Of a stretch of DNA of 16,884 nt, positions 1-16,884 are shown one piece after another; within the stretch, counting starts at the first letter, position 1, and each line of letters starts with the position of its first letter. A program made the position numbers and the translations under genes. Source of the DNA: a virus; UHGV virus genome UHGV-0068632. One strand, written 5' to 3'. The notes below the pieces were generated by a model that was not told the DNA's origin, made no database searches, and worked only from the letters and a program-made list of their open reading frames with translations.

Positions 1-101
1 TGAAGCCAGTTGGCGCTATTCCTGCAATGCAGACAAGAGAAGGGCGCTTTATTTTCACCGTAGCTTTTCAAACCATCATATCCAGATAAGAGGTAATAAA
101 C

Positions 102-578
102 ATGTCTCAGACTTGCGAAAAGGGCGCGTTTTTGGGCCGCGACGTGGCTGTATTCTTCGCTATCGCTTGTCCTAACGCGAAGCCGTTAGATGACGACTAC
201 AAAGCGTTAGGAATGATGCGCGGCAAAACGCTCTCAGTCGAATGGGAAACCGCAGACGCCACCGCTGATAAATCAGCAGACTACACAAAAGAATCAATGG
301 TTACTTACAAATCTGTTTCTTTCTCCGGCGATGGTGTATCCCGTACTGAAGCAATCCATAATCAGAAAGAACTGAAGCGTCACGTTATTAACCCTGGTGA
401 AACAACCGGATCTCAGCCTTATGTGTGGCTTAAACTTGTTTCCCCGGTTGATGTAACTGAAGGTCCATTCCTTTGCACTTCCTTTAAAGAGGAAGACCCG
501 AACGATGATGTTTCCACCTGGTCTATTGAGTGTTCAAGCGCTGGTAAGGTGACGGTTGGCGACATCCCAGCAGCATAA
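102..578 (+). CDS. Putative major tail (tail tube) protein, 158 aa
   Basis: Complete ORF with RBS aagagg 9 nt upstream of the ATG. Sits immediately upstream of the chaperone-position gene and tape measure gene. Size and composition fit small siphovirus tail tube proteins. Family assignment is by pattern and position, not by a search. Confidence 0.6.
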   Translation: MSQTCEKGAFLGRDVAVFFAIACPNAKPLDDDYKALGMMRGKTLSVEWETADATADKSADYTKESMVTYKSVSFSGDGVSRTEAIHNQKELKRHVINPGETTGSQPYVWLKLVSPVDVTEGPFLCTSFKEEDPNDDVSTWSIECSSAGKVTVGDIPAA

Positions 579-596
579 TAATCAATATTAATAATC

Positions 597-619
597 GGGG
601 CCGTTGGCCCCTTTCTTTT
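597..619 (+). terminator. Candidate intrinsic terminator or attenuator after the tail tube gene
   Basis: GGGGCC-gtt-GGCCCC hairpin at 597-611 followed by TTTCTTTT at 612-619, starting 19 nt after the stop codon at 576-578. Confidence 0.5.
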
Positions 620-1309
620 ATGGTGAAAACTATGATTCATGTTCGAACAGGACAATTTGCGGCGGTGGTAGACGGCAGGAGGTATGCGTTTAATCCCTGC
701 TTCGCTGCAATGGCTAAGATCGGCAGTGACAGCGAACTGGTCGAATACTTCGCAACCATCCACGGTGGCAAATATCCATCACGATTGCCAGCAGATCCAG
801 ACCTTCGCAATCGCATTCTGGCGCGGTGTTATGGTGAGTTAGTGCAAACGTCAATACACATCCTGAAATGTTGCTCAGACAACGAAATAGGCCCGTTATT
901 GGGTGAATGTAGGTTTACTCCTTCCGGCAAATTGCGACTAAAACCCGGACTGATGCCGACCAGTGACGTTATCACGCTGGCGCAACATTGCATGTACCAC
1001 GGTTTAATCGGTGACGGGCCAGAAGAAGACGCCGGAGAGATCCGGGAAGGGGAATATAAGCCGACTTTTAACGTGCTGGAATTCGTTTATTCTGCCGTAG
1101 CTCACCTGGGGTTATCAGAATCAGAAGCATGGAATATGACAATGACCGGATATAGAGCCGCCGTACGCGCTAAAACGCCGCCAGACGAAAGAAACGAGAG
1201 AAGCAAGCCAAACGTTCACATAAATAAACGTGCTTATGACGAGCAAATGGAGGCCGCTAAAAAGGCACTAGAAAGAATGAAAAATCGAGAGCAAGAAAAA
1301 GCCCGGTAG
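620..1309 (+). CDS. Putative tail assembly chaperone (gene in the lambda G/GT position), 229 aa
   Basis: ORF located between the tail tube gene and the tape measure gene. The ATG at 620 abuts the terminator T-tract and has no clear RBS; an alternative ATG at 632 is preceded by ggtga at 5 nt spacing. Function assigned by synteny only. No slippery frameshift site identified. Confidence 0.45.
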   Translation: MVKTMIHVRTGQFAAVVDGRRYAFNPCFAAMAKIGSDSELVEYFATIHGGKYPSRLPADPDLRNRILARCYGELVQTSIHILKCCSDNEIGPLLGECRFTPSGKLRLKPGLMPTSDVITLAQHCMYHGLIGDGPEEDAGEIREGEYKPTFNVLEFVYSAVAHLGLSESEAWNMTMTGYRAAVRAKTPPDERNERSKPNVHINKRAYDEQMEAAKKALERMKNREQEKAR

Positions 1310-1325
1310 ATCCGGGCGTTTTTGT
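1294..1325. terminator. Bidirectional hairpin terminator between convergent genes
   Basis: GCCCGG-tagat-CCGGGC at 1301-1317, flanked by an A-tract upstream and GTTTTTG downstream. Lies between the + gene ending at 1309 and the - gene ending at 1335. Confidence 0.6.
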
Positions 1326-1334
1326 TAAGTTCGC

Positions 1335-2584: not shown

Positions 2585-4924
2585 ATGGCTACCAGTGTAG
2601 GTACAATTTATTACGAAGTTGATGCAAAAACTGGTCAACTTCTCGTTGCACAACGACAGGCAGACCAGGCCTTTGACCGTATAGAGCGCGGCGCAAAACA
2701 GGCTGACCGCCAGGTAAACACCCTGAAAACATCCATCAAGGCACTGACCAGGGTTATCCATTTGCTAATTGCTGCCGAGGCTGTGCGCCAATTTATGGAT
2801 ATGGCGGAGCAAGCCAAAATGCTTCGCGTAAAAATCAAATTGCTTACAGGTGAAGCGGAGGCAACGGAACGGGTTTTCAACAGACTGAAAGAAATATCAA
2901 AAGAAACAGGCCAAAGCCTCAAGGATACTGGTGCCCTGTGGCAAGGTCTTGCTATATCGCTAAAAAACACATCCGCCACAGAAGGCCAGGTGCTCAACCT
3001 GGTCAGCACGCTGCAAAAACTTGGTAACTTGGGCGGCGTGTCTGCGGAACAACTATCAAACTCCATGCTTCAGTTCCGCCAGGCTATTGATGCTGGCGTG
3101 TTGCAGGCGGAAGAGTTCAACTCAATACGTGATAACACCCCAACAATCATACAGGAAATGGCCCGACAGATGGGGTTATCTATGGGGCAGTTCCGCGCCG
3201 AAATGCTGGACGGCAAGATCACGGCTGAAAGGATGCTCAACGCGATCCAGGCGGCTACGCAGGAAACAAACGAGAAGTTTGCACAGTTACCGCGCACGTC
3301 CGGTATGGCTTTTAATGAGCTTAAAGTCGAGGTGATGGGACTTGTCGAACAACTTGATGATCTTTTCGGCATATCAGATGGCGTTGTGTCAGCTATCGAC
3401 TTAATAACTGGTGGCGTTGAGGGATTAGGTAAAGGCGCAAAATTCGCCGCAACCTGTTTCAATACACTAAAAACGGCTGGCAGTGAGTTTATCGACATGT
3501 TTGATGATGTTGCTGTTAAAGCTGGTGAGGTGGCGGAAGAGATTATCAGGATGGTAACGCCAATCAAAGCGCTAATGGATGGCTACAAATGGATGAAGGA
3601 GATCATTGATAAACGCAAGAATGAGCTAAACAGCAACAACGAAAAGAAATTCGGCCCTACAGTCGGTAAGGTCATGACGTTTGCAAATGACATCAAAAAT
3701 GCGACCGCCGCTTATGATGAGTTTATGCAGAAACAGGGTGAGGCTGATGACGGCAAGATCACCGGATTCGATCAGCCAGTTGGCAAGCCGAAAAAAGGGA
3801 AAAAAGACAAGAAATCTGAAGCTGATCGGCTTGGTGATGAAGGCATAAAAGTATCCGACCAGTACAACAAAGACGCCGCAGCTATGCGCAAAGCGTTAGA
3901 GAACGGCAAGGCCATTGATGCTGCATTCGCCCAGGGTAAAATCACTCTCCTTGAGTACCGCGCCGCGCAAAAAGGGATAGGTAAGGAACTGAAGGAAGAA
4001 TTAGCGCAAATTCCGGTAGATGAATTGCGTGATAAATGGGCGCAAATAGTAAGCCCGATGGATCAGCTTAAAGGTGAGGTTGACCCTATCCAGCAGGTGC
4101 AGAATGAATGGGCCGTCCGTAAGCAAATGCTTATCGACCTGGGCGTTACTGAAGCGCAACAGAAACAGGAACTGTTAGCCTATGAGCAACAGATCCGTGA
4201 TCTGAAGTGGGAACAGTGGCAGGCACAAAGCGATACAAACGGCCTTATCGGTGATTGCGTTAATGGCCTAAAAGGTGGTATGAGCAATGCACTTGTTGGC
4301 CTGTTAAATGGTACTCAATCATTGAGTGATGTTTTTGCTAACTTAGGCAGCAATATCCTCGGGAATATCGGTAACAGGCTTTCAGACATAGCTGCAAACT
4401 GGATAGCAGATCAGATCATGATGGAAACGCAAAGCAAAGCGACTCAGGCAAGTACCACGGCGGGCGCGGTAGCGGCGCAAGGCCAGATTGCTGCGGCGGC
4501 GGCCCCGGCGGCGGCGGCAACAGCGGCGTCAACTGGCGGCGCATGGGCGGCGGCTGGTTCTGCGGCACTCACTGCGATCATGTCGCTGGCTACGTCAATT
4601 TTCGGCGGCGGTCGCTTTAATGGTGGTAGCGTTATTGGTGGCAATATGTACCGCGTAGGGGAACACAACAGGCCGGAGCTATTCCAGACATCTAACGGAA
4701 ATCAATATATGATCCCAGGCGAGAATGGCAGGGTTATTCCTGGGCGTGATATTGGCGGTGGCGGCGGCATTAGTATGCCTGTCAATATCAACATTCAGAC
4801 CACAAACGGATTTAGCGACGAAGACAGTCGCAGACTTGAGCAAACAATGGAACGTGTAGCAATGAAGATGATAACAAGGGAATCACAAAGACCTGGAGGA
4901 ATATTGCAACCGCGCCGCAAATAA
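2585..4924 (+). CDS. Tail tape measure protein, 779 aa
   Basis: Large ORF in the expected position, with RBS gagg 8 nt upstream. Has the mostly helical N-terminal region and the Ala/Gly-rich hydrophobic segment (QASTTAGAVAAQGQIAAAAAPAAAATAAS...) typical of tape measure proteins. Followed by gpM/L/K/I/J homologues. Confidence 0.9.
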   Translation: MATSVGTIYYEVDAKTGQLLVAQRQADQAFDRIERGAKQADRQVNTLKTSIKALTRVIHLLIAAEAVRQFMDMAEQAKMLRVKIKLLTGEAEATERVFNRLKEISKETGQSLKDTGALWQGLAISLKNTSATEGQVLNLVSTLQKLGNLGGVSAEQLSNSMLQFRQAIDAGVLQAEEFNSIRDNTPTIIQEMARQMGLSMGQFRAEMLDGKITAERMLNAIQAATQETNEKFAQLPRTSGMAFNELKVEVMGLVEQLDDLFGISDGVVSAIDLITGGVEGLGKGAKFAATCFNTLKTAGSEFIDMFDDVAVKAGEVAEEIIRMVTPIKALMDGYKWMKEIIDKRKNELNSNNEKKFGPTVGKVMTFANDIKNATAAYDEFMQKQGEADDGKITGFDQPVGKPKKGKKDKKSEADRLGDEGIKVSDQYNKDAAAMRKALENGKAIDAAFAQGKITLLEYRAAQKGIGKELKEELAQIPVDELRDKWAQIVSPMDQLKGEVDPIQQVQNEWAVRKQMLIDLGVTEAQQKQELLAYEQQIRDLKWEQWQAQSDTNGLIGDCVNGLKGGMSNALVGLLNGTQSLSDVFANLGSNILGNIGNRLSDIAANWIADQIMMETQSKATQASTTAGAVAAQGQIAAAAAPAAAATAASTGGAWAAAGSAALTAIMSLATSIFGGGRFNGGSVIGGNMYRVGEHNRPELFQTSNGNQYMIPGENGRVIPGRDIGGGGGISMPVNINIQTTNGFSDEDSRRLEQTMERVAMKMITRESQRPGGILQPRRK

Positions 4925-4927: not shown

Positions 4928-4958
4928 AAACCCCGGTACAATGCCGGGGTTATCTTTT
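4928..4958. terminator. Bidirectional hairpin terminator
   Basis: CCCCGG-tacaatg-CCGGGG at 4931-4949 followed by TTATCTTTT. Lies between the tape measure stop (4924) and the stop of the minus-strand ORF at 4957. Confidence 0.6.
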
Positions 4959-5133
4959 AGTTATTCTCAAAACTTGTATATCCTCTTTCAATTTTCCCGC
5001 CTCTTACACTTCTTGCAAATACTGCATCATTATGTTTGAAAAATGGTTCAGTATATGTGTCTCCTTTACTATCCATCCATTTCACGATCCAGGCTATACG
5101 TTTTACATTGCTTTTATTTGCCTGGTTTTTCAT
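4957..5133 (-). CDS. Small hypothetical protein, 58 aa (MKNQANKSNVKRIAWIVKWMDSKGDTYTEPFFKHNDAVFARSVRGGKIERGYTSFENN)
   Basis: Found by hand; one codon under the track cutoff. Strong RBS ggagg about 9 nt upstream of the ATG at 5133. The overlapping + strand track ORFs 5032-5289 and 5043-5228 lack an RBS and look like low-complexity antisense artefacts. Confidence 0.5.
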   Translation of the reverse strand: MKNQANKSNVKRIAWIVKWMDSKGDTYTEPFFKHNDAVFARSVRGGKIERGYTSFENN

Positions 5134-5151
5134 TTTATTTTCCTCCGCAAA

Positions 5152-5244
5152 TTACAATCTTCCGTTTCTGGCTATATAGCTGCGAGAAAACATCACCAAC
5201 CAAATATTCCAGATCTCCCTCCAGGTGAATTTATCGTCCTCCAT
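5152..5244 (-). CDS. Possible micro-ORF, 30 aa (MEDDKFTWREIWNIWLVMFSRSYIARNGRL)
   Basis: RBS gaggtg upstream of the ATG at 5244 overlaps the TGA stop of the 84-aa gene, and its own stop sits just upstream of the RBS of the 58-aa gene. Very short, so low confidence. Confidence 0.25.
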   Translation of the reverse strand: MEDDKFTWREIWNIWLVMFSRSYIARNGRL

Positions 5245-5251
5245 ACCCACC

Positions 5252-5506
5252 TCACTTATGGCAACCGCGAACGCCAGACAATTCATTGAATTTATGGTGT
5301 TCAACAATCACCCACTCTTTCAGATCCTGGCTATAGACTCGCCAGTCTAAATTGGCGCGGAAGGCGTAGCCGTAACCGTCTTTCAATTTTTTGGGTGACG
5401 CATTCTTGTTTAAAAACGCGTTCAAAAGTTCCTTTGCTTTTTTGACTACATGTCCCGGCGCGTTTTTCTGTGCTTTCAGATTTTTGTCAATCGCTACCAG
5501 TTTCAT
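5252..5506 (-). CDS. Basic 84-aa protein, tentatively RelE/ParE-superfamily-like (candidate toxin or mRNA interferase)
   Basis: Complete ORF in the track. Net charge about +9. The segment KKLKDGYGYAFRANLDWRVYSQDLKEWVIVEHHK resembles, by eye, the beta-strand core and C-terminal His/Tyr region of RelE/YoeB/YafQ-type toxins. This is pattern recognition only, not an alignment. Confidence 0.55.
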   Translation of the reverse strand: MKLVAIDKNLKAQKNAPGHVVKKAKELLNAFLNKNASPKKLKDGYGYAFRANLDWRVYSQDLKEWVIVEHHKFNELSGVRGCHK

Positions 5507-5523
5507 AACTCACCCCATCATCC

Positions 5524-5678
5524 TTAGTTAAGTGCCTTCAGGAAGAAGTCCCGGTATTCATCTTCTTTTGCATTCATCATGAATTGACCGTATTTGAATG
5601 CGTCGTCGAAACCCTTAACGATTGCTATTTCCACTTGTTCGAATGCGTTGTTTAGCATTACCACTACATAGCGTTTCA
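5524..5678 (-). CDS. Small hypothetical protein, 51 aa (MKRYVVVMLNNAFEQVEIAIVKGFDDAFKYGQFMMNAKEDEYRDFFLKALN), possible partner of the 84-aa protein
   Basis: Strong RBS aggagg 6-7 nt upstream of the ATG at 5678. The track's longer 76-aa version starting at 5754 runs through the promoter motif and has no RBS, so the internal start is preferred. Lies 17 nt upstream of the 84-aa gene. Confidence 0.55.
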
Positions 5679-5744
5679 TTTTGGGCCTCCTTCGTTGGTA
5701 CTGCTTTTCTTCTTGCTTTCTATATACATCTTGATGCGTGATAT

Positions 5745-5830
5745 GTGAAGCCATTTTGTAAACTAGCTATAATCATTGTGATGAAGATCTCATTTTTTGC
5801 GTAGAATCGCGTAAAAGTATATACAAAATG
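5745..5830. promoter_or_regulatory. Divergent promoter/operator region carrying the shared motif pair
   Basis: gtgaagccattttgta at 5745-5760 is identical over 16 bp to 2528-2543. A perfect TATAAT lies at 5768-5773 and a GATC at 5786-5789. The motif recurs in reverse orientation as tatacaaaatg at 5820-5830. Confidence 0.4.
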
Positions 5831-5848
5831 TAAATTATAGGGGGATTT

Positions 5849-6202
5849 ATGCCTGAAGTGTTCCGATGGACACCACAAAGAAGCTACAGCGTAAACAGTG
5901 AGCCTAACGTGTCTGTCATTAAGCTGGGTGATGGGTATGAACAGCGCCAGACAAAAGGGATTAACCCTTTACTTGATAGCTACAGCCTGGTTTTTAAAGG
6001 CACAAGCGCCGGATGCGGTGACGCCGGAAACGTGGCGCTCCAAGTTGACGCATTTTTAAGGGCGCGTTGCGCGGTCGAGGCGTTTTACTGGACTCCATCA
6101 ACTGACGGGGTGCAAAGGCTTTTTGTATGCAGAAAGTGGAGCATGACGAAAGACGGCCCGGTATGCACGCTAAACGCAACTTTTGAGCAAGTTGTCAATT
6201 AA
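5849..6202 (+). CDS. Minor tail protein, lambda gpM-like, 117 aa
   Basis: Matches my recollection of lambda gpM along its length: FRW near the N-terminus, GDGYxQR, WTP, CxKWS, and the C-terminal FEQVVN. RBS ggggga 4 nt upstream. Confidence 0.9.
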   Translation: MPEVFRWTPQRSYSVNSEPNVSVIKLGDGYEQRQTKGINPLLDSYSLVFKGTSAGCGDAGNVALQVDAFLRARCAVEAFYWTPSTDGVQRLFVCRKWSMTKDGPVCTLNATFEQVVN

Positions 6203-6215
6203 TGGAGGTGTCAAT

Positions 6216-6401
6216 ATGTATGCTATTTGTGTAGTGGACCGCACGGGCGCTTTTACATTGTTTGACGACTATGAAATCAACGATCTTACTGTAAAGGCTG
6301 ATAATGGCGAGATCTGGTATCTTCATGATGTTGGTGACGGGTATGTCGGATGCAGATCGAGAGAGGGTAGGGAAGTTTTATTTTTACTTGATGGCGTATA
6401 A
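6216..6401 (+). CDS. Small hypothetical protein, 61 aa, between the gpM-like and gpL-like genes
   Basis: RBS ggaggtg about 6 nt upstream of the ATG at 6216. The track start at 6183 has no RBS. No counterpart in the lambda M-L junction, so probably accessory. Confidence 0.55.
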   Translation: MYAICVVDRTGAFTLFDDYEINDLTVKADNGEIWYLHDVGDGYVGCRSREGREVLFLLDGV

Positions 6402-6406
6402 ACACG

Positions 6407-6433
6407 ACCCCGCGCGAAGCGGGGTTATTATTA
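6407..6433. terminator. Bidirectional hairpin terminator
   Basis: ACCCCGC-gcgaa-GCGGGGT at 6407-6425 followed by TATTATTATT. The same 19-mer occurs as an exact reverse complement at 14606-14624. Confidence 0.6.
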
Positions 6434-6547
6434 TTCCATTTCCATTAACGCTATATTTTCTGCTATCGTTTTCCAGTCCAGATCTACAGCATGAACACCA
6501 AATACTATCAATCCCATTGCGATTAGTGCTAAAACTTCGATTTTCAT
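6431..6547 (-). CDS. Small putative membrane protein, 38 aa (MKIEVLALIAMGLIVFGVHAVDLDWKTIAENIALMEME)
   Basis: Found by hand. RBS gtgagg 6 nt upstream of the ATG at 6547. The hydrophobic N-terminal segment predicts a single transmembrane helix. The stop overlaps the terminator tail. Confidence 0.45.
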   Translation of the reverse strand: MKIEVLALIAMGLIVFGVHAVDLDWKTIAENIALMEME

Positions 6548-6638
6548 AATCAACCTCACTTAATTAAGAAAGGCATAAACGATGGCAATCGCGCCAGCCA
6601 CTACCAAAACATTTCGATCACTTCGTCTACTTTATTGA

Positions 6639-6842
6639 TTAAGGTAACTCCACTTCGTTAAATGTAACAAGCACCCCTTGATTTTCTTTATTTATAATTA
6701 TGAAGGCATTAATTGAAGGCAGACATCTTTCCACGCGGTAAACGTCACCAATATCTAAACTGTAATATTCTGTTAATTCTCTATTGTTCCCTTTAGCAAA
6801 ACCCGTAAACCTAACCATTTTTTGACCGTCGTACTTTAACAT
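6639..6842 (-). CDS. Hypothetical protein, 67 aa, cassette 3
   Basis: ORF in the track. RBS agga 6 nt upstream of the ATG at 6842. Lies 9 nt downstream of the preceding gene's stop. No family recognised. Confidence 0.65.
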   Translation of the reverse strand: MLKYDGQKMVRFTGFAKGNNRELTEYYSLDIGDVYRVERCLPSINAFIIINKENQGVLVTFNEVELP

Positions 6843-6850
6843 ATACAGTC

Positions 6851-7099
6851 CTATAGGTTATCACGCAGATAATTAACGCCTTTGTCAGTGACGAATGAGT
6901 GATTAACCTGGTTTTCATCCGTCATGATGATGAATGACTTTTCCTGTAGGTATTTCGCTTTTGGGTACAGCGTTAAACAGACCTGGTACAGTATCCCGCG
7001 CTCAATCAGCAAATCAATAAATTCGTGCTCATGATAACCGACGAGGCGGGCGGCTTGTTTCAACGTGTACACATAATCGCCGTGATTGCGCCGCCCCAT
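6851..7099 (-). CDS. Hypothetical protein, 82 aa, possible helix-turn-helix DNA-binding protein
   Basis: ORF in the track with RBS aaggcgg upstream. The segment YTLKQAARLVGYHEHEFIDLLIERGIL has the spacing of an HTH motif of the excisionase/AlpA-like type. Judged by eye only. Confidence 0.6.
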   Translation of the reverse strand: MGRRNHGDYVYTLKQAARLVGYHEHEFIDLLIERGILYQVCLTLYPKAKYLQEKSFIIMTDENQVNHSFVTDKGVNYLRDNL

Positions 7100-7108
7100 G
7101 TTGCCGCC

Positions 7109-7456
7109 TTATTTATCGAATGCGCCCAGGTTATCTATGCAGAAGTCTTTCGCAGCTTTTTCGTATTCGCGTTTTGCTTGCGGATCGTCTGCCGGGAAAC
7201 CTTTTGCGTGTATTTCACCAGGGCAAGACTGATCCATAGAATCAGCAAATTCAACATTGACGTTAAAGTTAATATCTTTCGGATTCATGTTTTCCACCTC
7301 ATCAATTATCTGCACCGGATTAGCGGCATATTTCACTGGATGGCCTAAACTACATTCAAGAATCCTTCCTTCTTCCAAAGCTGCCTCTTCGCTATCAAAT
7401 AATCCGAAACACTCCTTGCAACCACTTAACCACACATCAAGACTATATTTTTGCAT
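7109..7456 (-). CDS. Acidic hypothetical protein, 115 aa, cassette 3
   Basis: ORF in the track. RBS gagagg 8 nt upstream of the ATG at 7456. About 23 Asp/Glu against about 11 Lys/Arg (net charge near -12). Contains a CxxC pair (CKEC). No family recognised. Confidence 0.7.
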   Translation of the reverse strand: MQKYSLDVWLSGCKECFGLFDSEEAALEEGRILECSLGHPVKYAANPVQIIDEVENMNPKDINFNVNVEFADSMDQSCPGEIHAKGFPADDPQAKREYEKAAKDFCIDNLGAFDK

Positions 7457-9192: not shown

Positions 9193-9665
9193 ACGTTGAA
9201 ACGCCAGCGCAAGGACTTCGCTTGTTGACCGCGCAGAATCAGGAATTCAAGAAGGCGTTTTTAAATACACCTTTGCGTTTACGAATTTCCGGGAAAGATT
9301 ACGACGAAAAGACCGCGCCCGCTGCGGTTAATAGCAAATATCCAGATGGGACTACGGTAATTATTGCGCCAATAGTGGAAGGTGGTATTGCAGGGATCGG
9401 TGTGGTCGGTTGGATTATGATCGGAATATCAGTTGTTAGTGTCGCATTTTCTATTTTCATGTCTCGCAACATGAAGGTGAAAACATCATCAGAAAGCGCA
9501 CAGGATAACACCATAACAAACAACAGTTACACCAGCATAGAAAACAGGGTGGGCCAGGGTAGACCAGTGCCAATTTTATTGGGTGAAATGAAAGTAGGTT
9601 CAAACGTCGGATCGTTAGGCATAGACACAACAAACAATAAAGACGCCTTAGACGTTGTAAGTTAA
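9135..9665 (+). CDS. Tail assembly protein, lambda gpI-like, 176 aa
   Basis: N-terminus LKFRFTGNLRRYY aligns with lambda I (ICLYGDLQRFG). Has the Gly/Ala-rich hydrophobic stretch and LLGEMKVGSNVGS, corresponding to lambda LYGEMRVGSRVVS. Overlaps the 3' end of the gpK-like gene by 58 bp in another frame, as in lambda. Confidence 0.85.
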   Translation: MLKFRFTGNLRRYYSKVCLNVETPAQGLRLLTAQNQEFKKAFLNTPLRLRISGKDYDEKTAPAAVNSKYPDGTTVIIAPIVEGGIAGIGVVGWIMIGISVVSVAFSIFMSRNMKVKTSSESAQDNTITNNSYTSIENRVGQGRPVPILLGEMKVGSNVGSLGIDTTNNKDALDVVS

Positions 9666-9679
9666 CAGGAGAAATAACC

Positions 9680-12600
9680 ATGAGTAGCGGCGGCGGCAAA
9701 GCAAAAACACCAACTTTAATTAACGATAATCTATATCACAAACAGTTTTATCGTGTACTCGACATTATTTCAGAAGGTCCGATTTATGGTCCTGTTAATA
9801 CCAATGCGCCATTAAACAGCGTAATGCTTAATGACACCCCTGTAACTGACGCGAACGGCAATACCAGCATCCCCGGTATTAGCGTAGCGTGGCGCAATGG
9901 TACGATAGATCAATCACCGATTAACGGTTTTAACGCCATTGAATCAACCGTTATTGTTAACGCACAGGTTAAACACGATACACCAATAATCAGGACCGTT
10001 TCCGATCCTAACGTAAACCGCGTTCGCCTGAATATCGGCGTCGATTCACTTGTACAATCTGACGAGCAAAGCAATCAACATAACACATCGGTTATGATGA
10101 TGATTGACGTGAAGCCTTCGTCTTCTTCTACGTGGACGCTTGTTAAAGACGTTACTATAGGCCCAGGTAAGATCAGCGGAGAATATCTTGAAGCGCATAT
10201 TATCAATGCACCAGATGAAAAACCGTTTGATATTCGCGTTCGCCGTGTAACCGCTGATAGCACAAGCGATCTGTTGCAGAATGATACGCGATGGAGTAGC
10301 TACAGCGAAATAATCGACGATAATTTGTCTTATCCTCACACCGCTGTAGCTGGCGCGGTAATTGACCATGATCAGTACGCTGACACGCCTACCCGCACCT
10401 ATCACCTTCGCGGGCTGATTGTTGATATTCCTGATAACTACGACCCGGAAAAGCGCACTTATTCCGGTTTGTGGCTTGGCGGCTTCAAACAGGCGTACAC
10501 CAATAACCCAGCATGGATCTTCCGCTATCTGGTTAAAAACGAGCGTTTCGGCCTTGCTCGTCACGCTGGCTATATTGACGTTGACGACGGCGCATTATAT
10601 ACGCTTTCTCAATACTGCGACCAGTTGGTTGATGATGGCTACGGCGGCCTTGAGCCTCGCATGACGCTTAACGCTTACATCACAGAGCAAATGAGCGCCC
10701 GCGACTTACTGGACAATATCGCCGGGATGTTCAGGGGTATCGCGTTATGGGACGGGCAACGCCTTACCGTGATGATTGATGCACCACAAGACCCGATCGC
10801 CACCATTACAAATGCAAATGTCGTTGATGGCGCGTTTACTCGTTCAAGTATCGCCCGCGCAGAATGCTACAACGCCGTGATCGTATCATGGACTGACCCG
10901 GAAAACGGATGGGAGCAATCAAAAGAGTATGTAGCAGACGATGAACTGATCGCCCGTGATGGTTACAACGAAACCACGTTAGAGGCGTTCGGGTGCACAT
11001 CACGCGGGCAAGCATACCGCGCGGGCAAGTGGCTGATAGAAACAGCAAAACGCGAGCCGTCAAAATTCACGTTTAAAATGGCGCGTGACGCGATTCACTT
11101 TACGCCAGGGGATATTATCGAGATACTCGACAATAACCGCGCAGGCGCTCGTTTAGGCGGCCGCATCGTTGCGAACAACGGCAAAGTAATAACGGTAGAT
11201 AAGGTTGACGCCAATTATATCGCCGCTGGGGATACAATCAGCCTTCTTGATAGCGATGGCAAGTTTAAAAAGCATCAGATCACCGGGGTGAGCGGAAACA
11301 AAATCACACTGGCGGCGGCCCCGTCATGGATTCGAAACGGCACTGTTTTTGCTGTATCCACTGAATCAGCAAAACCCGTTTTGTGCCGGATCACCAGTGT
11401 AGCCGAAACAGAAAATAACAGCGTGTACACCATCGAGGCCGCACAGCACGACCCGAACAAGCAAGCAGTGGTCGATGAAGGCGCAATATTTGAAGTCAAC
11501 AATGACACGCTTAACCATTTCCGCGTGCCGAACATTGAAAATCTGAAGGTGGTAAACATTGGATCGGAAACAATTCAATGTCGCGCCACATGGGAAACGC
11601 AGACAACAACGCATCGTATGACATTTGAGATCCGCATATATAATGCAGATGGTGCGGTGGTTAAAAGCTATGAAACAACGAAATACAGTTATGATTTTTA
11701 TGGCATTGACGCTGGCGTGTATTCTTTAGGGGTTCGCGGAAGAAATGACACTGGCATGAAGGGCGCGGAAAGTATTGTGGATCTGGTTATTGGTGCGCCA
11801 GCAGCGCCAATAGGTGTTAACTGGGTACCAGGTGTATTTCAGGCTACCGTATACCCGATAAGTAAGACAACGCTAACCACTGATACAGCGTATGAATTCT
11901 ACTATGCAGGGGAAAACCAGATCACAGATCCGGCAAAAATAACCACGGCGGCACAGTTTACCGGGCGCGGGTATCAGTGGACGTTCGGCGGAATGAACAC
12001 GGGCCATACTTATTACGTTTATGTGCGTACACGTAATGCTTTTGGCGTGTCAGACTTCGTTGAAGCATCAGGTAAGCCGACAGAAAATTTTGATGAAATT
12101 AGCGATTACGTCACCAAAGACGTGATGAATTCCGAACAATTTAAAGAAATGGTGGGCGACATTAAGGATCTTGGCGATCGCACTGACATTATCGAAAGTG
12201 CAACTCAAGACCTTAAAACAGCTACTGATACCCTAAGCGGAATAACTGAAGGCTTAAGAACTGATACTGATAATTTAATTACAGAAACAGAATCAATTAA
12301 AGCTGATACTGATTCCCTTAAAAAAGACACTGAAGACCTTTACAAGAAAGTCGAAGAAAACGCCGATGAAATAGGTAAACATGAGGTAAGAATTGACTCA
12401 TTAGAGGTATCAAGCGAAAACGTAGATAATGAACTGGCACAGACAAAAGCAAGCCTACAAAACGCATCGCTTGCTCTTATTAATAATTCGCTTGCTCAAA
12501 CTAATACCAGAAGAACGCTGACAGCTCAGATCAAAAACGTGGATTATGAAACTAAGGCGCAAATAGATCGCATTGATAACGTGATTGTCAGTGAAAAAGA

Positions 12601-14599
12601 AGCAAGAGCGGAGGCAATGGAGACAATTACCGCCGAAATCGACACGATGGATAAAAACATCAAAGGTGAGATTGCGCGCGTAGATACTGCCATTGCCAAT
12701 GAGAGCCAGGCAAGGGCTGATGCCATCAGTGAAGTTAGCGCAAACATTGACGCACTTGATAGTAAAACAGATGCCAGTGTTAATCGTCTTGATCAAGCTA
12801 TCGCAGATGAGGCCAGCGCACGCGCACAGGCTATCAGCAATGTCAATGCGAGCATGACAAATCTTGATAACAAGGTTACAAGCAACGTTTCTAGACTTGA
12901 TCAGGCAATAGCTGACGAATCAAGCGCAAGAGCAGAAGCCGATGATCAGTTAATAGCAAAAAGCGAAAAACTTGATGGTGATCTCGCTATGGCAAGGGCA
13001 AGCCTACAAAACGCTTCGCTTGCTCTCATCAATAATACATTGTCTCAGACAAAGACAAGGCGCACTCTCACAGCGGAGTTCAAACGCGGACAAAGTGAAA
13101 CTAAAGCACAAATTGACCGTATTGATAATGTCATTACTGACGAAAAACAGGCAACAGCGGAAGCGTTTGAAACTATCACAGCAGAAATGAACACGATGGA
13201 CTCAAACATTAAAGGAGAAATATCACGATTAGATAAAGTGATCGCGACTGAAACGCAAGCAAGATCTGAAGCTATAAGTAGTGTTAATGCAAGCATAAAG
13301 ACGCTAGAAAGCGACACTGAAGCCAGCGTTAACCGTCTTGATCAGGCAGTTGCTGACGAGGCCAGCGCCCGCGCACAAGCTATCAGCGGAGTAAATGCAA
13401 GCATCAGCACGCTTGATAGCAAGGTTACAAGCAATGTGACCCGTATCGACAAAGCTATTGCAGATGAGACGCAGGCCCGCACAGACGCAATAAGCAACCT
13501 TAACTCATCGCTTACCAGTACGATTAATTCTAAAGTATCTGAAGTATCAACAGCACTTTCTACGCATGAAGCATCAAGCGCGGAAAAATTCAGCCAGATC
13601 TCAGCGTCTTTCGAAGCTGTAAACTCAAGCATCACGGAATGGTCGCAGACCATGACAACGGCGGACGAGGCATTATCAACCAAAATTGATCAGTTAACAG
13701 TAACCGTTAATGGGAACACAACAGCGATCGAGACGACATCGAAAGCGTTAACCGACTTCAAAGGTAATGTTGATGCGTCATGGTCAATCAAGATTGCTAC
13801 TGATAACAACGGCATGAAATACGCTACAGGTATGTCGCTTGGCCTGACTGGTAGCGGGACTAACGTTCAATCGCAGTGTATTTTCCTCGTTGACCGCTTC
13901 GTGTTAATGACCGCAGCAAACGGCACATATACAACGCCTTTCTATGTGTCTAATGGTGCAATGTATGTGAAAGAAGCGTTTATTAAAAACGCATCAATAG
14001 GTACAGCTAAAATTGCAGATGCAGCCATTACTATGGCTAAAATTGTTAATGAAATAAAATCATCAAACTATGTTGCTGGTTCTAAAGGTTGGAGGATAAC
14101 ACAAAGCGGATCATCAGAATTTAACGATGTTGTGGTAAGGGGCGAAATCCATGCTAATAGCGGTAAATTCAAAGGAACTGTAGAAGCTACATCCTTTGTT
14201 GGTGATGTCGCATCTACTAACGTTATACCGCAATCATCATTCCCTGGGACAAGTACAAGCGGATCTCGATCTGTTACGAAGACGTATAAAGATTCATCAT
14301 CAAGCTCGCTTTCGAAAACAGTTTTCGTAATGATTCCTTACCATCTTACTTATTATACTTATTCAGGATCATCAACAATAAAAGTAACAATTGATATTAA
14401 TGGCAATAGCAAAACATATAACGTAGTAAGGGCGGCATCATCGCCTCAATTCGGATTTACGGTATCACATTGCGTAACTGGGATTACTGCTCAAACAGTT
14501 ACGATAAAAATAACAGAGGAATACACCAACACCGGAACATCAGCAGAAAGAAGGCCAGGTCTTGCACTTGTTACAAGAAGCTCAGGATCATGGTCATAA
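9680..14599 (+). CDS. Tail tip / host specificity protein, lambda gpJ-like, 1639 aa
   Basis: Collinear similarity to lambda J over the N-terminal roughly 800 aa (for example SEGPIYGPV, YHLRGLIVDIPDNYDPEKRTYSG, LSQYCDQLVDDGYGGLEPRMTLNAY, FGCTSRGQAYRAGKWLIETA). Followed by FN3-like segments, a roughly 480-aa repetitive coiled-coil region and a distinct C-terminal domain. Confidence 0.95.
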   Translation: MSSGGGKAKTPTLINDNLYHKQFYRVLDIISEGPIYGPVNTNAPLNSVMLNDTPVTDANGNTSIPGISVAWRNGTIDQSPINGFNAIESTVIVNAQVKHDTPIIRTVSDPNVNRVRLNIGVDSLVQSDEQSNQHNTSVMMMIDVKPSSSSTWTLVKDVTIGPGKISGEYLEAHIINAPDEKPFDIRVRRVTADSTSDLLQNDTRWSSYSEIIDDNLSYPHTAVAGAVIDHDQYADTPTRTYHLRGLIVDIPDNYDPEKRTYSGLWLGGFKQAYTNNPAWIFRYLVKNERFGLARHAGYIDVDDGALYTLSQYCDQLVDDGYGGLEPRMTLNAYITEQMSARDLLDNIAGMFRGIALWDGQRLTVMIDAPQDPIATITNANVVDGAFTRSSIARAECYNAVIVSWTDPENGWEQSKEYVADDELIARDGYNETTLEAFGCTSRGQAYRAGKWLIETAKREPSKFTFKMARDAIHFTPGDIIEILDNNRAGARLGGRIVANNGKVITVDKVDANYIAAGDTISLLDSDGKFKKHQITGVSGNKITLAAAPSWIRNGTVFAVSTESAKPVLCRITSVAETENNSVYTIEAAQHDPNKQAVVDEGAIFEVNNDTLNHFRVPNIENLKVVNIGSETIQCRATWETQTTTHRMTFEIRIYNADGAVVKSYETTKYSYDFYGIDAGVYSLGVRGRNDTGMKGAESIVDLVIGAPAAPIGVNWVPGVFQATVYPISKTTLTTDTAYEFYYAGENQITDPAKITTAAQFTGRGYQWTFGGMNTGHTYYVYVRTRNAFGVSDFVEASGKPTENFDEISDYVTKDVMNSEQFKEMVGDIKDLGDRTDIIESATQDLKTATDTLSGITEGLRTDTDNLITETESIKADTDSLKKDTEDLYKKVEENADEIGKHEVRIDSLEVSSENVDNELAQTKASLQNASLALINNSLAQTNTRRTLTAQIKNVDYETKAQIDRIDNVIVSEKEARAEAMETITAEIDTMDKNIKGEIARVDTAIANESQARADAISEVSANIDALDSKTDASVNRLDQAIADEASARAQAISNVNASMTNLDNKVTSNVSRLDQAIADESSARAEADDQLIAKSEKLDGDLAMARASLQNASLALINNTLSQTKTRRTLTAEFKRGQSETKAQIDRIDNVITDEKQATAEAFETITAEMNTMDSNIKGEISRLDKVIATETQARSEAISSVNASIKTLESDTEASVNRLDQAVADEASARAQAISGVNASISTLDSKVTSNVTRIDKAIADETQARTDAISNLNSSLTSTINSKVSEVSTALSTHEASSAEKFSQISASFEAVNSSITEWSQTMTTADEALSTKIDQLTVTVNGNTTAIETTSKALTDFKGNVDASWSIKIATDNNGMKYATGMSLGLTGSGTNVQSQCIFLVDRFVLMTAANGTYTTPFYVSNGAMYVKEAFIKNASIGTAKIADAAITMAKIVNEIKSSNYVAGSKGWRITQSGSSEFNDVVVRGEIHANSGKFKGTVEATSFVGDVASTNVIPQSSFPGTSTSGSRSVTKTYKDSSSSSLSKTVFVMIPYHLTYYTYSGSSTIKVTIDINGNSKTYNVVRAASSPQFGFTVSHCVTGITAQTVTIKITEEYTNTGTSAERRPGLALVTRSSGSWS
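12449..13546 (+). repeat. In-frame tandem duplication (2 x 549 bp, 183 aa each) inside the gpJ-like gene
   Basis: Unit 1 begins gcaagcctacaaaacgcatcgcttgctctt at 12449 and unit 2 begins gcaagcctacaaaacgcttcgcttgctctc at 12998. The proteins ASLQNASLALINNSLAQTNTRRTLTAQ... and ASLQNASLALINNTLSQTKTRRTLTAE... are collinear. Each unit holds three shorter repeats of about 36 aa of the RLDQAIADEASARAQAIS type. Confidence 0.8.
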
Positions 14600-14606
14600 A
14601 AAATAA

Positions 14607-14632
14607 CCCCGCTTCGCGCGGGGTTTTCTTTT
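14607..14632. terminator. Bidirectional intrinsic terminator between the J-like gene and the lipoprotein gene
   Basis: CCCCGC-ttcgc-GCGGGG at 14607-14623 followed by TTTTCTTTT. Lies 8 nt after the J-like stop codon, and the minus-strand lipoprotein stop overlaps the T-tract. Confidence 0.65.
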
Positions 14633-14879
14633 AGTAGTTAGCTACACAATTCGACGGGCTACCTATGCGGCGCATGTTGTGATCGAGTTCATGACACCAT
14701 TGACCAGTATATGGCAGTTTTTCAGTGTCATATACAAGATGACCATTAGCATCATAGACGATTTCTTGTGGAATCACTCCGCTATTTGGCAGGTTATGCA
14801 ATGCAGCTTCTTTGTCAACAGCGCAACCAGTAAGAGCAACAGCCGCAGCGAATAAAACCACTTTGAACATGTTTTTCAT
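14631..14879 (-). CDS. Small outer-membrane lipoprotein, 82 aa, in the Cor/Llp position (candidate receptor-blocking superinfection exclusion protein)
   Basis: N-terminus MKNMFKVVLFAAAVALTGC has a signal peptide and lipobox L-T-G-C with Ala at +2. RBS gagga 6-7 nt upstream. Encoded convergently just downstream of the receptor-binding J-like gene, where T1/phi80-type Cor and T5 Llp genes are found. Assigned by position and type, not by sequence homology. Confidence 0.7.
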   Translation of the reverse strand: MKNMFKVVLFAAAVALTGCAVDKEAALHNLPNSGVIPQEIVYDANGHLVYDTEKLPYTGQWCHELDHNMRRIGSPSNCVANY

Positions 14880-14975
14880 TTTTTAATCCTCGTTCTTGTT
14901 AGCTCATCCGGTTCATCCGGTGGCTTAAATATCCGACAAAACCACATTTCGTATATTGATATAAATCAATAAATA

Positions 14976-15023
14976 CATTTTGTATAAGTCAAAAATGTAA
15001 CATAGATCACAAAATGGTAGAAT
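14976..15023 (+). promoter_or_regulatory. Candidate promoter and conserved leader for the tail fibre gene
   Basis: cattttgtataa at 14976-14987, catagatcacaaaat at 15001-15015 (GATC at 15005-15008), and the extended -10-like TGGTAGAAT at 15015-15023, about 34 nt upstream of the ATG at 15057. Confidence 0.45.
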
Positions 15024-15056
15024 TATTCCGTTAATTAACATAATGGAGTCATTGCG

Positions 15057-16847
15057 ATGATTTATACAACGGGAACAATTGCCATTAACGGCAATACTGT
15101 TACAGGCACGGGAACAAACTTTTCCGCGCCGCTTTCTCTCATCCGTGTAGGTTGCACGCTCATTGCCATTAGCAATCCTATCCAGATCTTTACCATCACA
15201 GAAATTAAGAGCGGTACTGAACTGTCAGTGACGCCAGCGGCTAACCCTGCAATTGCTGCCGGGGCAAAATTCAGCATTCTGCTTTCTGACTCTATCTCAG
15301 TTGATGGGCTTGCCCAGGATGTAGCGGAAACACTTCGTTTTTATCAGGAAAAAGAAGACGAAATATCCAGCGCAATAGATGGCAGCAATATTGGCTTAGG
15401 TCCAGAGCCGCGCGATTGCGTCGATATATCAGGCGATCCGTCTTCTTACGTTGGCTTTTTGCGCATAAAGGAAACGACTAAGGGTTTTCCTTCTGTAGCG
15501 GCTGGTGAATCATTTTTGAGTGGATTTATCTGTCAACGAGACACGACGCCTTCATATACAGGCGTCTTTGTCGGTTGGGCTACGCGATCACTTTATACGT
15601 ATACATGGGTCGCAACATCAGGTCCGAACTGGACACGACACGCAAGAAAAGATGAGGTGGATAGGCTTGTTCAAAGAACAGGAGAAACTCGCGTACGCGC
15701 TCAAAACGCAAATAAATTCCTTACCGTCTATGATTCAGGATCGTGGGGTTATTATGACTCAGAGGCTAGTAAATGGCTACCGCTTCCAGTTCTTGCTGGA
15801 GGCACTGGTGCGGGAAACGCAGAAGAAGCAAGAAATAATTTAAATCTTGGTGAAAGCAACGCGGTTAAATTCAAAAACCTTACGTTAATAGGGGCGCTAG
15901 ATGCAAATTTAGGCATGCTCGTAAAAACTGGAAGAGACTGGAATACTCAGCACACTGACAATATCCAAAAATTTATACCAATGGCAGGAAGCACAAACGG
16001 ACCCGCCGGAGCAATGGTACTCGGTGGCTTCCATGTGCAATACAGCACAAATTACGCTGTGCAATTCGGGGGTCGAAATTCCGGTTTTTGGGGTAGAACA
16101 ATTGAAAACGGAACAGTTCAGGAATGGCGTCAACTAGCTACGCTTAACACATCCGGTCAAAAATGGACTGCCGGTCAGCATTTTGTGACGACAAAAATTA
16201 ACTCTTATGATTTCACAAGACGTTTAACTATCGATGTGATAGAAAACGCAAAAACAAACGCACGGTTACGCTTATGGGGATCAGAAACAAGGCAGTCCGT
16301 TTTAGAATATGGACTCTCGAACGCTGAAACCGATGAGTATAATACATATGGCTTTTATTGCCAGCTTAACCCAGACGGAGTAATTAGTTTTCAGGTTAAC
16401 GGCGTAGTAAACTGCACAGCAGTTAATCAGACTTCAGATCGCGATCTGAAGGACAACATTCAGGTTATAGGTGATGCAACTGAAGCAATCCGTAAAATGA
16501 ACGGGTACACCTACACCCTCAAGGAAAACGGCCTGCCTTACGCTGGCGTTATCGCTCAAGAGGTAATGGAGGCGCTGCCGGAGGCTGTGGGATCGTTTAC
16601 TCATTACGGTAAAGCATTACAAGGCCCGACCACTGACGGCAACGAGCTACGCGAGGAAACGCGTTACCTCAATGTTGACTACGCTGCGGTGACTGGTTTA
16701 CTTGTTCAGGTGGCACGCGAAACAGATAACCGCGTCACCGAACTGGAGGAAGAAAACGCCAGCTTACGAGCTAACATTGCCGTCATGGATGAGCGGATCA
16801 CAAAACTTGAAGCGCTTGTCAGGCAGTTAACCGGAAGCGAAGAATAA
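15057..16847 (+). CDS. Tail fibre protein with C-terminal intramolecular chaperone (peptidase S74-like) domain, 596 aa
   Basis: RBS ggag 9 nt upstream. The C-terminal roughly 135 aa (TSDRDLKDNIQVIGDATEAIRKMNGYTYTLKENG...AGVIAQEVMEALPEAV...) matches the conserved self-cleaving chaperone module of endosialidase and T5 L-shaped fibre proteins, and ends in a coiled-coil (LEEENASLRANIAVMDERITKLEALV). Confidence 0.85.
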   Translation: MIYTTGTIAINGNTVTGTGTNFSAPLSLIRVGCTLIAISNPIQIFTITEIKSGTELSVTPAANPAIAAGAKFSILLSDSISVDGLAQDVAETLRFYQEKEDEISSAIDGSNIGLGPEPRDCVDISGDPSSYVGFLRIKETTKGFPSVAAGESFLSGFICQRDTTPSYTGVFVGWATRSLYTYTWVATSGPNWTRHARKDEVDRLVQRTGETRVRAQNANKFLTVYDSGSWGYYDSEASKWLPLPVLAGGTGAGNAEEARNNLNLGESNAVKFKNLTLIGALDANLGMLVKTGRDWNTQHTDNIQKFIPMAGSTNGPAGAMVLGGFHVQYSTNYAVQFGGRNSGFWGRTIENGTVQEWRQLATLNTSGQKWTAGQHFVTTKINSYDFTRRLTIDVIENAKTNARLRLWGSETRQSVLEYGLSNAETDEYNTYGFYCQLNPDGVISFQVNGVVNCTAVNQTSDRDLKDNIQVIGDATEAIRKMNGYTYTLKENGLPYAGVIAQEVMEALPEAVGSFTHYGKALQGPTTDGNELREETRYLNVDYAAVTGLLVQVARETDNRVTELEEENASLRANIAVMDERITKLEALVRQLTGSEE

Positions 16848-16884
16848 GAGGTGATGTGCGAAGAACATCGCCGCGCGAAACGAG

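Follow-up and report, generated by a model that had tools for sequence, protein, structure and literature searches.

We find that the tail genes of UHGV virus genome UHGV-0068632 are cut into five segments by four islands of genes facing the opposite way, and that the junctions holding these islands are likely resident expression slots with swappable cargo. The stretch that we analyzed, called the window below, comprises 16,884 nucleotides (nt). The cargo can be said to occupy resident slots because, among relatives of the window, junctions empty of cargo keep a block of promoter-like elements, and most of those examined in full at island 4 keep the terminator as well. Its sequence matches identify the window as the tail module from a temperate Escherichia coli siphophage of the mEpimmI group (mEp021-like). 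It is 93.5% identical to phage MagusPhagus over 81% of its 16,884 nt and ~85% identical to mEp010, mEp044, mEp554, mEp021, mEp013 and mEp515; about 35 E. coli prophages also match it, with 55 to 85% coverage. The mEpimmI phages, reported as a group in 2025, are Nus-dependent, non-lambdoid and temperate; all members have a single immunity type, and the group is prevalent in human gut samples (PMC11893012). The same paper assigns most variable genes to the regulation cluster. It describes no counter-oriented islands or scaffold, and the words moron, opposite, antisense and divergent are not in its text (PMC11893012).

Our comparisons covered 15 annotated relatives and 80 IMG/VR loci that were retrieved via the L protein. 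Here, the family denotes the 59 loci (including the window) whose L proteins are at least 84% identical, and the sister lineage denotes 37 loci with L ~71% identical. The presence of island genes was scored with tblastn in a close set of 16 genomes.

The first-pass annotation had described four groups of minus-strand genes lying between plus-strand tail genes in lambda order. Pfam matches confirm the order, and the groups lie where they were placed, except that island 2 ends at 5679 rather than 5678. In all, 13 minus-strand genes make up the islands: island 1 at 1335-2426 (106, 219 and 29 amino acids, aa), island 2 at 4957-5679 (58, 30, 84 and 51 aa), island 3 at 6431-7624 (38/42, 67, 82, 115 and 51 aa) and island 4 at 14631-14879 (82 aa). 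The five tail segments that they separate are 102-1309, the tape measure gene (TMP) at 2585-4924, 5849-6401, 7754-14599 and the fiber gene at 15057-16847. Each minus-strand open reading frame (ORF) has its own Shine-Dalgarno (SD) sequence, as had been proposed, the one before the 67-aa gene of island 3 (TAGGAC) being weak. When homologous copies were compared across as many as 57 related loci, most variable sites were third codon positions (positions 1/2/3: 10/10/44 for the first gene of island 2, 18/6/52 for the 82-aa gene of island 3, 9/3/45 for the island 4 gene and 6/2/16 for the 29-aa gene of island 1). No in-frame stops were found in the variants of island genes from these loci, even in the ORFs of 29, 30 and 38 aa. 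Because of this bias toward position 3 and the lack of stops, we conclude that the minus-strand frames are under coding constraint; judged by these patterns of variation, by the SD sequences and by matches in Pfam and PHROG, the ORFs are real genes.

The islands are also richer in AT than the genes around them, which had previously been judged by eye. Their GC content is 0.389 to 0.419, against 0.47 for the core, and this difference is present in all 16 genomes compared. Islands 1 to 3 fall below every core window of equal size (0 of 697-865), and island 4 is lower than 96% of such windows. Codon usage follows this picture in part: GC content at third codon positions (GC3) is 0.27 to 0.38 in the variable genes, whereas four of the five conserved promoter-proximal genes have core-like values of 0.50 to 0.58. 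The exception among the latter is the 115-aa gene of island 3, with a GC3 of 0.37. The first 50 nt of the islands fold with a mean of -12 to -19 kcal/mol, compared with -8.6 kcal/mol for core 50-mers, and the weakest of the island-start 50-mers show no hairpin.

A hairpin terminator had been claimed for the 3' end of each cassette, and one is predicted at all four convergent ends when both strands are scored. These bidirectional terminators lie at 1301-1317 (T1; GCCCGG-loop-CCGGGC, with T runs on both strands), 4929-4951 (T2), 6406-6426 (T3) and 14605-14625 (T4), and T3 and T4 are 88% complementary over 33 nt. With their terminators, common 5' regions and lower GC content, the groups bear out their description as genuine compact cassettes resembling transcription units.

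The divergent regions at the 5' ends of the islands share motifs, as the first-pass annotation had noted. Each of the four regions contains a single copy of the motif TACAAAATGTA, which is absent from the rest of the window; 0.55 occurrences would be expected by chance. Each region holds a block of elements that face both ways. In block 1 (2503-2584), a predicted minus-strand promoter (TTCACT at 2531-2526, a 17-nt spacer, TATAAA at 2508-2503) overlaps the 13-mer ATACAAAATGTAT (2507-2519) and is followed by a plus-strand element, CCATTTTG-TATAAAAT (2533-2549), and by a palindrome at 2550-2565 that resembles the site of the cyclic AMP (cAMP) receptor protein, CRP. Block 2 (5720-5848) has a predicted minus-strand promoter of TTCACA (5749-5744), 17 nt and TATATA (5726-5721); its plus-strand elements are CCATTTTG at 5751-5758 and TATAAT at 5768-5773, its CRP-like palindrome is at 5777-5792 and its 13-mer at 5821-5833. 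For block 3 (7639-7753), the predicted minus-strand promoter is TTGATC (7699-7694), 17 nt and TATATT (7676-7671), with the 13-mer at 7674-7686; TTGTTA-18-TAAAAT and CCATTTTG-G-TATGAT (7701-7715) face the tail gene, and the palindrome lies at 7720-7735. Block 4 (14960-15056) comprises the 13-mer (14973-14985), a minus-strand -35 element, TTGACT (14993-14988), the palindrome (14996-15011) and an extended -10 element on the plus strand, TGgTAGAAT (15015-15023).

The plus-strand modules of the four blocks align with 24 invariant columns: xTxAAx-(C/A)CATTTTG-(G)TAT..., then (T/C)GTGA-N6-TCACA. On the minus side, blocks 1 to 3 are in register, with TTCAC(T/A) or TTGATC, a 17-nt spacer containing ATACAnnnTG, and TATAAA, TATATA or TATATT; reverse-complementing the minus-strand -35 gives the GTGAAG found before CCATTTTG. 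Block 4 contains these parts too, in a slightly altered arrangement. On the strength of these alignments, the four blocks are paralogous copies of a single module with back-to-back promoter-like elements. In alignments of relatives, the 75 to 110 nt upstream of the TMP, M, L and fiber genes are near-invariant regardless of the cargo beyond. The 13-mer occurs at 53 of 53, 39 of 56, 53 of 57 and 49 of 51 family junctions (1 to 4, respectively) and at none in the sister lineage. We had considered ATACAAAATGTAT as a free-standing palindromic operator and dropped this idea, as in blocks 1 to 3 it consists of the spacer and first -10 bases of the island-facing promoters; its palindromic look may be incidental. 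In the leader of the fiber gene, GTTAATTAACA (15030-15041) is near-invariant across relatives, empty junctions included, and resembles the ArcA half-site consensus.

The palindromes are likewise concentrated in the blocks. With no more than one mismatch allowed, the window contains three copies of the core TGTGA-N6-TCACA, one each in blocks 2, 3 and 4; 0.59 would be expected. The best 22-mer matches to the CRP consensus AAATGTGATCTAGATCACATTT anywhere in the window are those of block 2 (17/22), block 4 (16/22) and block 1 (16/22), against a mean of 5.7 and a standard deviation of 2.05; block 3 matches the core at 9 of 10 positions. Among the 59 family loci, islands 2 to 4 contain 116 core sites (at most one mismatch), 111 of them at block positions, and a further 8 lie elsewhere in 1.06 Mb. 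Computed from predicted -10 elements and from starts placed to within ~2 nt, the palindrome centers are at about -61.5, -70.5, -63.5 and -41 to -44 for the predicted island promoters and at +1.5 to +8.5 for the predicted starts of tail-facing transcription. The slot 4 palindrome has at most two mismatches in 44 of 45 cargo-bearing junctions and four to five mismatches in four of six empty ones; the tail-facing -10 survives in the empty junctions whose palindrome is degraded.

Comparison with relatives separates what is fixed from what varies. The four junctions are filled in all 16 closely compared genomes and, with few exceptions, across the 59 family loci, and the minus strand carries 407 of 511 island ORF calls in the family (39.5k of 48.9k aa). 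In many sister-lineage loci, TMP overlaps M and 36 nt separate M from L, so that junctions 2 and 3 are empty, as they are in lambda. This lineage (loci L060-L096, from IMG/VR) has a DUF6246 gene and lacks the block motifs; some members carry fillers of 300 to 800 nt at the same junctions. It had no megablast match among INPHARED phages and appears to be uncharacterized. Within the family, island 4 is reduced to 108 to 113 nt in L006, L031, L045 and L051, and L028 lacks island 3 together with the 61-aa gene 3' of M, so that its sequence passes from the M stop through the block to the L ATG. The promoter block persists in empty junctions, as does the terminator in three of the four empty island 4 junctions examined in full. 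These three share a J variant and run J stop, hairpin, block, fiber ATG; the fourth (L036, 210 nt) has a different hairpin.

Content differs among relatives as expected of accessory cassettes at island 1, at island 4 and at the terminator ends of islands 2 and 3. In islands 2 and 3, by contrast, the promoter-proximal genes are fixed and occur in most of the 59 family loci. The accessory reading of the first-pass annotation therefore holds for roughly half of the genes and fails for these. That reading had been said to fall if the minus-strand genes kept the same positions in all relatives and had structural roles: the proximal genes are indeed conserved, and no structural role is documented for them. 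Counting from crude ORF calls (greedy, longest first, at least 40 aa), we found 16, 18, 18 and 7 cargo alleles at slots 1 to 4, respectively. These occur in 40 combinations among 48 complete loci, which indicates that the slots reassort independently. The additional cargo of relatives consists mostly of small orphan proteins, lipoproteins and selfish elements. Slot 1 alternatives belong to at least nine orphan families. Slot 4 may instead hold Cor, a type-A 'Phage_lipoprotein' with DUF6453, or a 100-aa orphan. The alternatives at slot 2 include HNH, an IS200 transposase and T5orf172 combined with a treble-clef zinc finger. Selfish elements were seen in island 2 at L043 7173-7631, L013 4371-5681, L002 5930-7264 and L010 5414-5896. 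They include an IS200-type transposase and a 436-aa protein with T5orf172 and treble-clef zinc-finger/CapR domains, which is split into two ORFs in mEp021; HNH endonucleases adjoin the ParE-like gene. Such elements could drive the turnover of cargo at slot 2.

The products of the window's own island genes illustrate both kinds of content. In island 1, the 106-aa gene (c1c, 1335-1655) encodes an orphan cytoplasmic protein and is variable cargo, present in 2 of the 16 close genomes and at 7 loci overall. Its neighbor (c1b, 1665-2324; 4 of 16 genomes, 18 loci overall) encodes a 219-aa lipoprotein with the lipobox LVGC and a VasI/TagO domain (PF11319, 53.9 bits against a cut-off of 26.5). The sole NCBIfam match of this protein, to the VasI equivalog, is below threshold (41.6 against 124.2). 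It shares the VasI domain with the VasI/TagO proteins of type VI secretion systems, but does not lie in a type VI cluster; it sits in a prophage tail module, in the gap between the DUF6246 and tape measure genes. The cargo of slot 1 is predicted to be an envelope lipoprotein with a VasI/IalB fold and an orphan partner. The promoter-proximal gene of this island encodes 29 aa (c1a, 2337-2426; SD AAGAGGA), is present in 12 of 16 genomes and has a leader homologous to that of island 4.

In island 2, the terminator-proximal gene is a 58-aa orphan (c2c, 4957-5133; 12 of 16 genomes, GC3 0.27). Upstream of it lie a 30-aa frame (c2x, 5152-5244; 15 of 16), which is conserved and is annotated as a 93-nt coding sequence in relatives, and an 84-aa gene with a ParE-like toxin domain (c2b, 5252-5506; 16 of 16). 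The domain matches PF24732 (ParE_like) at 1.2e-7, with 32.1 bits against a cut-off of 24.4. Two alleles of this gene exist, ~62% identical, and the homologues found are all 84-aa proteins of at least 58% identity that are confined to the family. The first gene of the island (c2a, 5524-5679; 51 aa, phrog_29810, 15 of 16) lies 17 nt upstream, and the two occur together in 15 of 16 genomes. From its position, its product is a candidate antitoxin, and the two genes together are a possible toxin-antitoxin-like pair. The 51-aa protein matched nothing in Pfam, NCBIfam or PADLOC and no antitoxin family. As in ParE/RelE type II systems, the operon opens with a small gene that is followed, after 17 nt, by one for a ParE-like putative toxin. 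The pair differs from those systems in that the partner has no antitoxin-family match and the homologues are limited to one phage family. Searches of PDB sequences with the VasI-like and ParE-like proteins returned nothing meaningful.

Island 3 begins with another 51-aa gene (c3a, 7469-7624; phrog_29559, 14 of 16). No homology was detected between the two 51-aa proteins, and their equal length is coincidence or convergence. Next come the 115-aa gene (c3b, 7109-7456; phrog_38567, 16 of 16), an acidic orphan that contains cysteine, and the 82-aa gene (c3c, 6851-7099; 16 of 16), which consists of a KilAC (antirepressor C-terminal) domain alone (PF03374, 2e-6) and is 90 to 99% identical among genomes, a level equal to or above that of tail proteins. 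The island ends with a 67-aa orphan (c3d, 6639-6842), found only in the window among the 16 close genomes and at 9 loci in the wider set, and a hydrophobic protein of 38 or 42 aa (c3e, 6431-6547/6559; 11 of 16).

Island 4 holds a single gene (c4, 14631-14879; 9 of 16), which encodes an 82-aa lipoprotein with the lipobox LTGC, belongs to phrog_12984 ('lipoprotein') and is of type-C Lpp. Its product is identical to mEp010 gp116 (Lpp010) at 77 of 82 positions (94%). Cells with plasmid-expressed Lpp010 exclude mEp010, mEp044, mEp554 and lambda, each of which depends on LamB, and phages with type-C Lpp use LamB (PMC11893012). We therefore regard the island 4 product as a putative outer-membrane lipoprotein for superinfection exclusion of LamB-dependent phages, a function shown for the 94%-identical Lpp010. 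With the Cor/Llp/Lpp exclusion lipoproteins, whose genes adjoin receptor-binding tail genes (Lpp010 and Lpp021 in mEpimmI phages), it shares the lipobox, a type-C Lpp sequence and a location between J and the fiber gene. Relatives carry Cor or a type-A Lpp in slot 4, whereas the protein of the window lies outside the Cor family (phrog_12984, not phrog_1119, which the relatives with Cor do match). The islands had been suggested as a site for defense, anti-defense or exclusion; exclusion is borne out by this homology, and PADLOC recognized no known defense gene among 10 island proteins.

The genes c1a, c2c and c4 have a common 24-nt initiation region (2418-2441, 5125-5148 and 14871-14894), in which the SD is followed by ATGAAAAAC and all three proteins start with MKN. 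The leaders of islands 1 and 4 both carry ACCGGAT(A/G)AACCGGA, the SD and ATGAAAAAC. Together, the common initiation region and leaders suggest duplication or exchange of 5' ends between slots.

These observations can be joined into a model of how the slots might work. Each junction runs from the stop of a plus-strand gene through a bidirectional hairpin terminator, the minus-strand genes and a conserved promoter block of 80 to 130 nt to the next plus-strand gene. The block contains a predicted sigma-70-type promoter toward the island, a predicted promoter toward the next tail gene and the TGTGA-N6-TCACA palindrome. The fixed parts of a slot are the promoter block, the leader and, in most genomes, the first gene or genes, and most of the junctions examined keep the terminator. 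Terminator-proximal genes are swapped, most likely via homologous recombination through the conserved flanks and possibly with the help of homing endonucleases. In a lysogen, the slots would be transcribed leftward from their own promoters as far as the terminator, and the hairpins would also stop leaky rightward transcripts. During lytic growth, a Q-antiterminated late transcript would read rightward through terminators and islands, opposing island transcription. Such read-through is modeled on the late transcript of lambda, which depends on Q antitermination; mEp021 has a gene for a bona fide Q antiterminator (PF03589, 1e-29).

Two other readings of the islands deserve consideration. The islands could be four ordinary morons, gathered independently, each with its own promoter and terminator and without a resident scaffold. 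Lower GC than the flanks, terminators, SD sequences of their own and presence or absence among relatives are all classical criteria for morons. Nevertheless, the block is conserved whatever the cargo and survives emptying, as does the terminator in three of four full-length empty island 4 junctions; the four blocks are paralogous; and the same four sites alone are used across 59 loci. Independent moron-type insertion, as implied by the first-pass annotation, is not borne out by a conserved promoter block that flanks the cargo and persists without it, and we consider it highly improbable. A stronger case can be made that the conserved genes of islands 2 and 3 perform core phage functions from the other strand, for example as regulators of late development or assembly, and that only islands 1 and 4 are accessory. 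The ParE-like, 115-aa and KilAC genes are present in 16 of 16 genomes and the 51-aa first genes in 15 and 14; KilAC identity equals or exceeds that of tail proteins; GC3 is core-like in four of the five genes; and homologues were found within the family only. On the other hand, L028 lacks island 3 completely and the sister lineage lacks islands 2 and 3, the two alleles of the ParE-like gene reassort, and we found none of these products on record among virion proteins, the GenBank entry of mEp021 marking none of them as structural. We regard this reading as somewhat unlikely. Some observations nonetheless count against resident slots with swappable cargo. In slots 2 and 3, the proximal genes match the core in conservation and may serve the phage rather than be cargo. 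Allele counts rest on crude ORF calls, and L028 may be a defective or misassembled contig. The promoters and starts are consensus predictions: a general scan found fewer promoter-like sites than in shuffled sequence and passed its threshold in block 3 only, a looser scan gave plausible -10 elements in blocks 2, 3 and 4, and reading of the sequence and alignments gave the elements of block 1 and, for blocks 1, 2 and 4, the promoters toward the island. A PADLOC-DB 2.0 scan of 10 island proteins (E up to 0.01) gave 0 matches. The AlphaFold2 model of the ParE-like protein, built from a 10-sequence alignment, had a mean confidence (pLDDT) of 45.8; it did not confirm the ParE-like fold and was not used. 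Finally, mEp021_80, a 314-aa DUF6453 protein encoded on the minus strand in island 4 of mEp021 (L002 17544-18479), is annotated as virion structural in GenBank. At least one slot gene may thus be made in lytic growth and packaged in the particle, and not all slot genes need be lysogeny genes.

What controls the slots is a separate question, and the palindrome is the obvious lead. If it were a host CRP site in each block, bound cAMP-CRP would activate the island promoter (class I/II) while sitting on the tail-facing start. Lysogens would then express their cargo when cAMP is high, and the slot 4 lipoprotein would be co-expressed with its catabolite-controlled target, LamB. Such a switch would add to the slot model and not compete with it. 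The three top CRP-consensus scores of the window fall in blocks 2, 4 and 1, and 111 of 116 family core sites are at block positions. The center distances, relative to predicted promoters, fit those of E. coli divergent promoter pairs under CRP control (class I, -61.5/-71.5; class II, -41.5), and the mal regulon is CRP-dependent. In addition, the slot 4 palindrome is kept with cargo and degraded in most empty junctions, and type-C Lpp phages use LamB. Yet the phasing hangs on start sites predicted to ~2 nt, block 1 has two core mismatches in 53 of 53 junctions, and the empty slot 4 junctions are few and probably kin by descent. We consider the switch possible, while leaning against it. Note also that the same palindrome and 13-mer occur together at intergenic sites in the early region of mEp021, which would fit a phage regulator equally well. 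The palindrome and 13-mer could then be operators bound by the helix-turn-helix (HTH) protein in the Cro position, gp14, or by the shared immunity repressor, which would make the promoters of the islands and those within the tail genes respond to the lysis-lysogeny state. Either the 13-mer or its core TACAAAATG recurs with GTGA-N6-TCACA in mEp021 (L016) at 11927-11975, 16519-16575 and 20078-20152, and also at 2378, 6065 and 12609; the copy at 11927 abuts the -35 of a strong PR-like promoter (TTGACT-17-TATATT) downstream of the repressor gene. The family may use this module genome-wide, as a junction or regulatory element. The single immunity type of the family (PMC11893012) and the absence of the motifs from the sister lineage agree with a phage regulator. 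So does gp14 of mEp021 (L016 10615-10860, 81 aa), with a weak Crp-like match (PF13545, E 7e-4) that is below the Pfam cut-off; we name it as a candidate binder of the CRP-like palindromes. Against this, no operator has been defined for any regulator of the family, and the palindrome is close to the host CRP consensus beyond its core, so that control by a phage regulator seems unlikely to us. An earlier lead, that repressor operators carry the motif, was dropped because one apparent match lies within the repressor coding sequence. The boldest form of the slot model would make the junctions four paralogous, bidirectional 'cargo docks' built by the phage, each with a back-to-back promoter pair, in which a CRP or phage-regulator operator turns the island promoter on while lying on the tail-facing start, and one host signal toggles all four between lysogen cargo expression and tail-gene transcription. 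This we hold to be doubtful.

The slots resemble several known arrangements. The morons of lambdoid phages, a concept reportedly defined by Hendrix and Juhala and exemplified by lambda bor and lom and by those of HK97/HK022, share with the islands their placement between conserved late genes, lower GC, a terminator, a predicted promoter and presence or absence among relatives. Lambda bor, too, is on the opposite strand. Insertion between genes that are otherwise adjacent is seen at junctions 2 and 3 of the sister lineage, at empty island 4 junctions and in L028. The base composition of the islands is deviant, with the conserved proximal genes nearer to the core. However, the islands do not bring their own promoter and terminator, as the promoter block belongs to the junction. 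They differ from morons further in that the block is resident and paralogous at four fixed junctions, slots hold several genes, and proximal genes are conserved in the family. Hotspots in P2/P4-like elements and prophages hold variable defense or accessory cargo at fixed positions. The islands share with them fixed positions, conserved flanks and many independently reassorting cargos, but consist of small orphans, lipoproteins and homing endonucleases without a recognized defense system, inside a tail cluster and facing against it. In divergent CRP promoter pairs, as here, a near-consensus site lies between back-to-back elements, at distances predicted to allow class I/II activation and occlusion; here the element is repeated four times within a phage late region, and the sites are predictions. 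Literature searches for such an architecture or for CRP-controlled morons returned general moron reviews only. The islands amount to a neat variation on the known moron rather than a new type of system. What our analysis adds is resident, paralogous slots of terminator and promoter block with a CRP-like palindrome.

If the slot model is true, these phages offer a clean natural example of how accessory genes are organized in temperate phages. Instead of being scattered as morons complete in themselves, such genes would occupy a few standard, insulated, counter-oriented sites within an essential operon, which would allow cargo to be exchanged without disturbing tail assembly. If the slots also act as docks, any gene placed between block and terminator would inherit their control, and the slot 4 lipoprotein would be co-regulated with LamB. 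The conservation of the ParE-like, KilAC-only, 51-aa and 115-aa proteins suggests a function for the phage itself. Furthermore, the slots mark where exclusion and other lysogenic-conversion genes should be sought in mEpimmI phages.

The plus-strand genes of the window comprise the tube gene (102-578, PF06199), the DUF6246 gene in the chaperone position (620-1309, PF19759), TMP (PF20155), M (5849-6202, PF05939) and the 61-aa gene (6216-6401), then L (7754-8458), K (8461-9192), I (9135-9665) and J (9680-14599), all four with Pfam matches, and the tail fiber gene, with a C-terminal S74 chaperone domain (PF13884). At the 3' end of the DUF6246 gene there is neither an overlapping ORF in the -1 or +1 frame nor an X XXY YYZ slippery heptamer. 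Without such a partner ORF and heptamer, a G/GT frameshift pair of the kind usual in long-tailed phages is not apparent; directly after this gene comes island 1. Between the tube and DUF6246 genes, a GC-rich hairpin (597-611) with T runs on both sides is conserved in mEp010, mEp044 and mEp021, where it is annotated as a terminator. Rfam and tRNA scans of the window gave no matches.

Two 300-nt direct repeats in the J gene (12412-12711 and 12961-13260) are 70% identical and probably encode repeated Ig/FN3-like domains. Repeats of variable length have been described in the C-terminal half of J in this family (PMC11893012). In five of nine E. coli prophages examined (L004, L005, L007, L010 and L015), the right end lies ~150 nt before a truncated abgT, which points to a common integration site; prophage L011 adjoins mppA instead. 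Lastly, mEp021 (L002 11761-12327) and mEp515 (L014 11934-12500) carry a plus-strand HNH endonuclease gene between I and J. With HNH, the I-J gap is 571 nt, compared with 13 to 14 nt in most of the other 14 genomes, and it forms a fifth insertion point, in the sense orientation.

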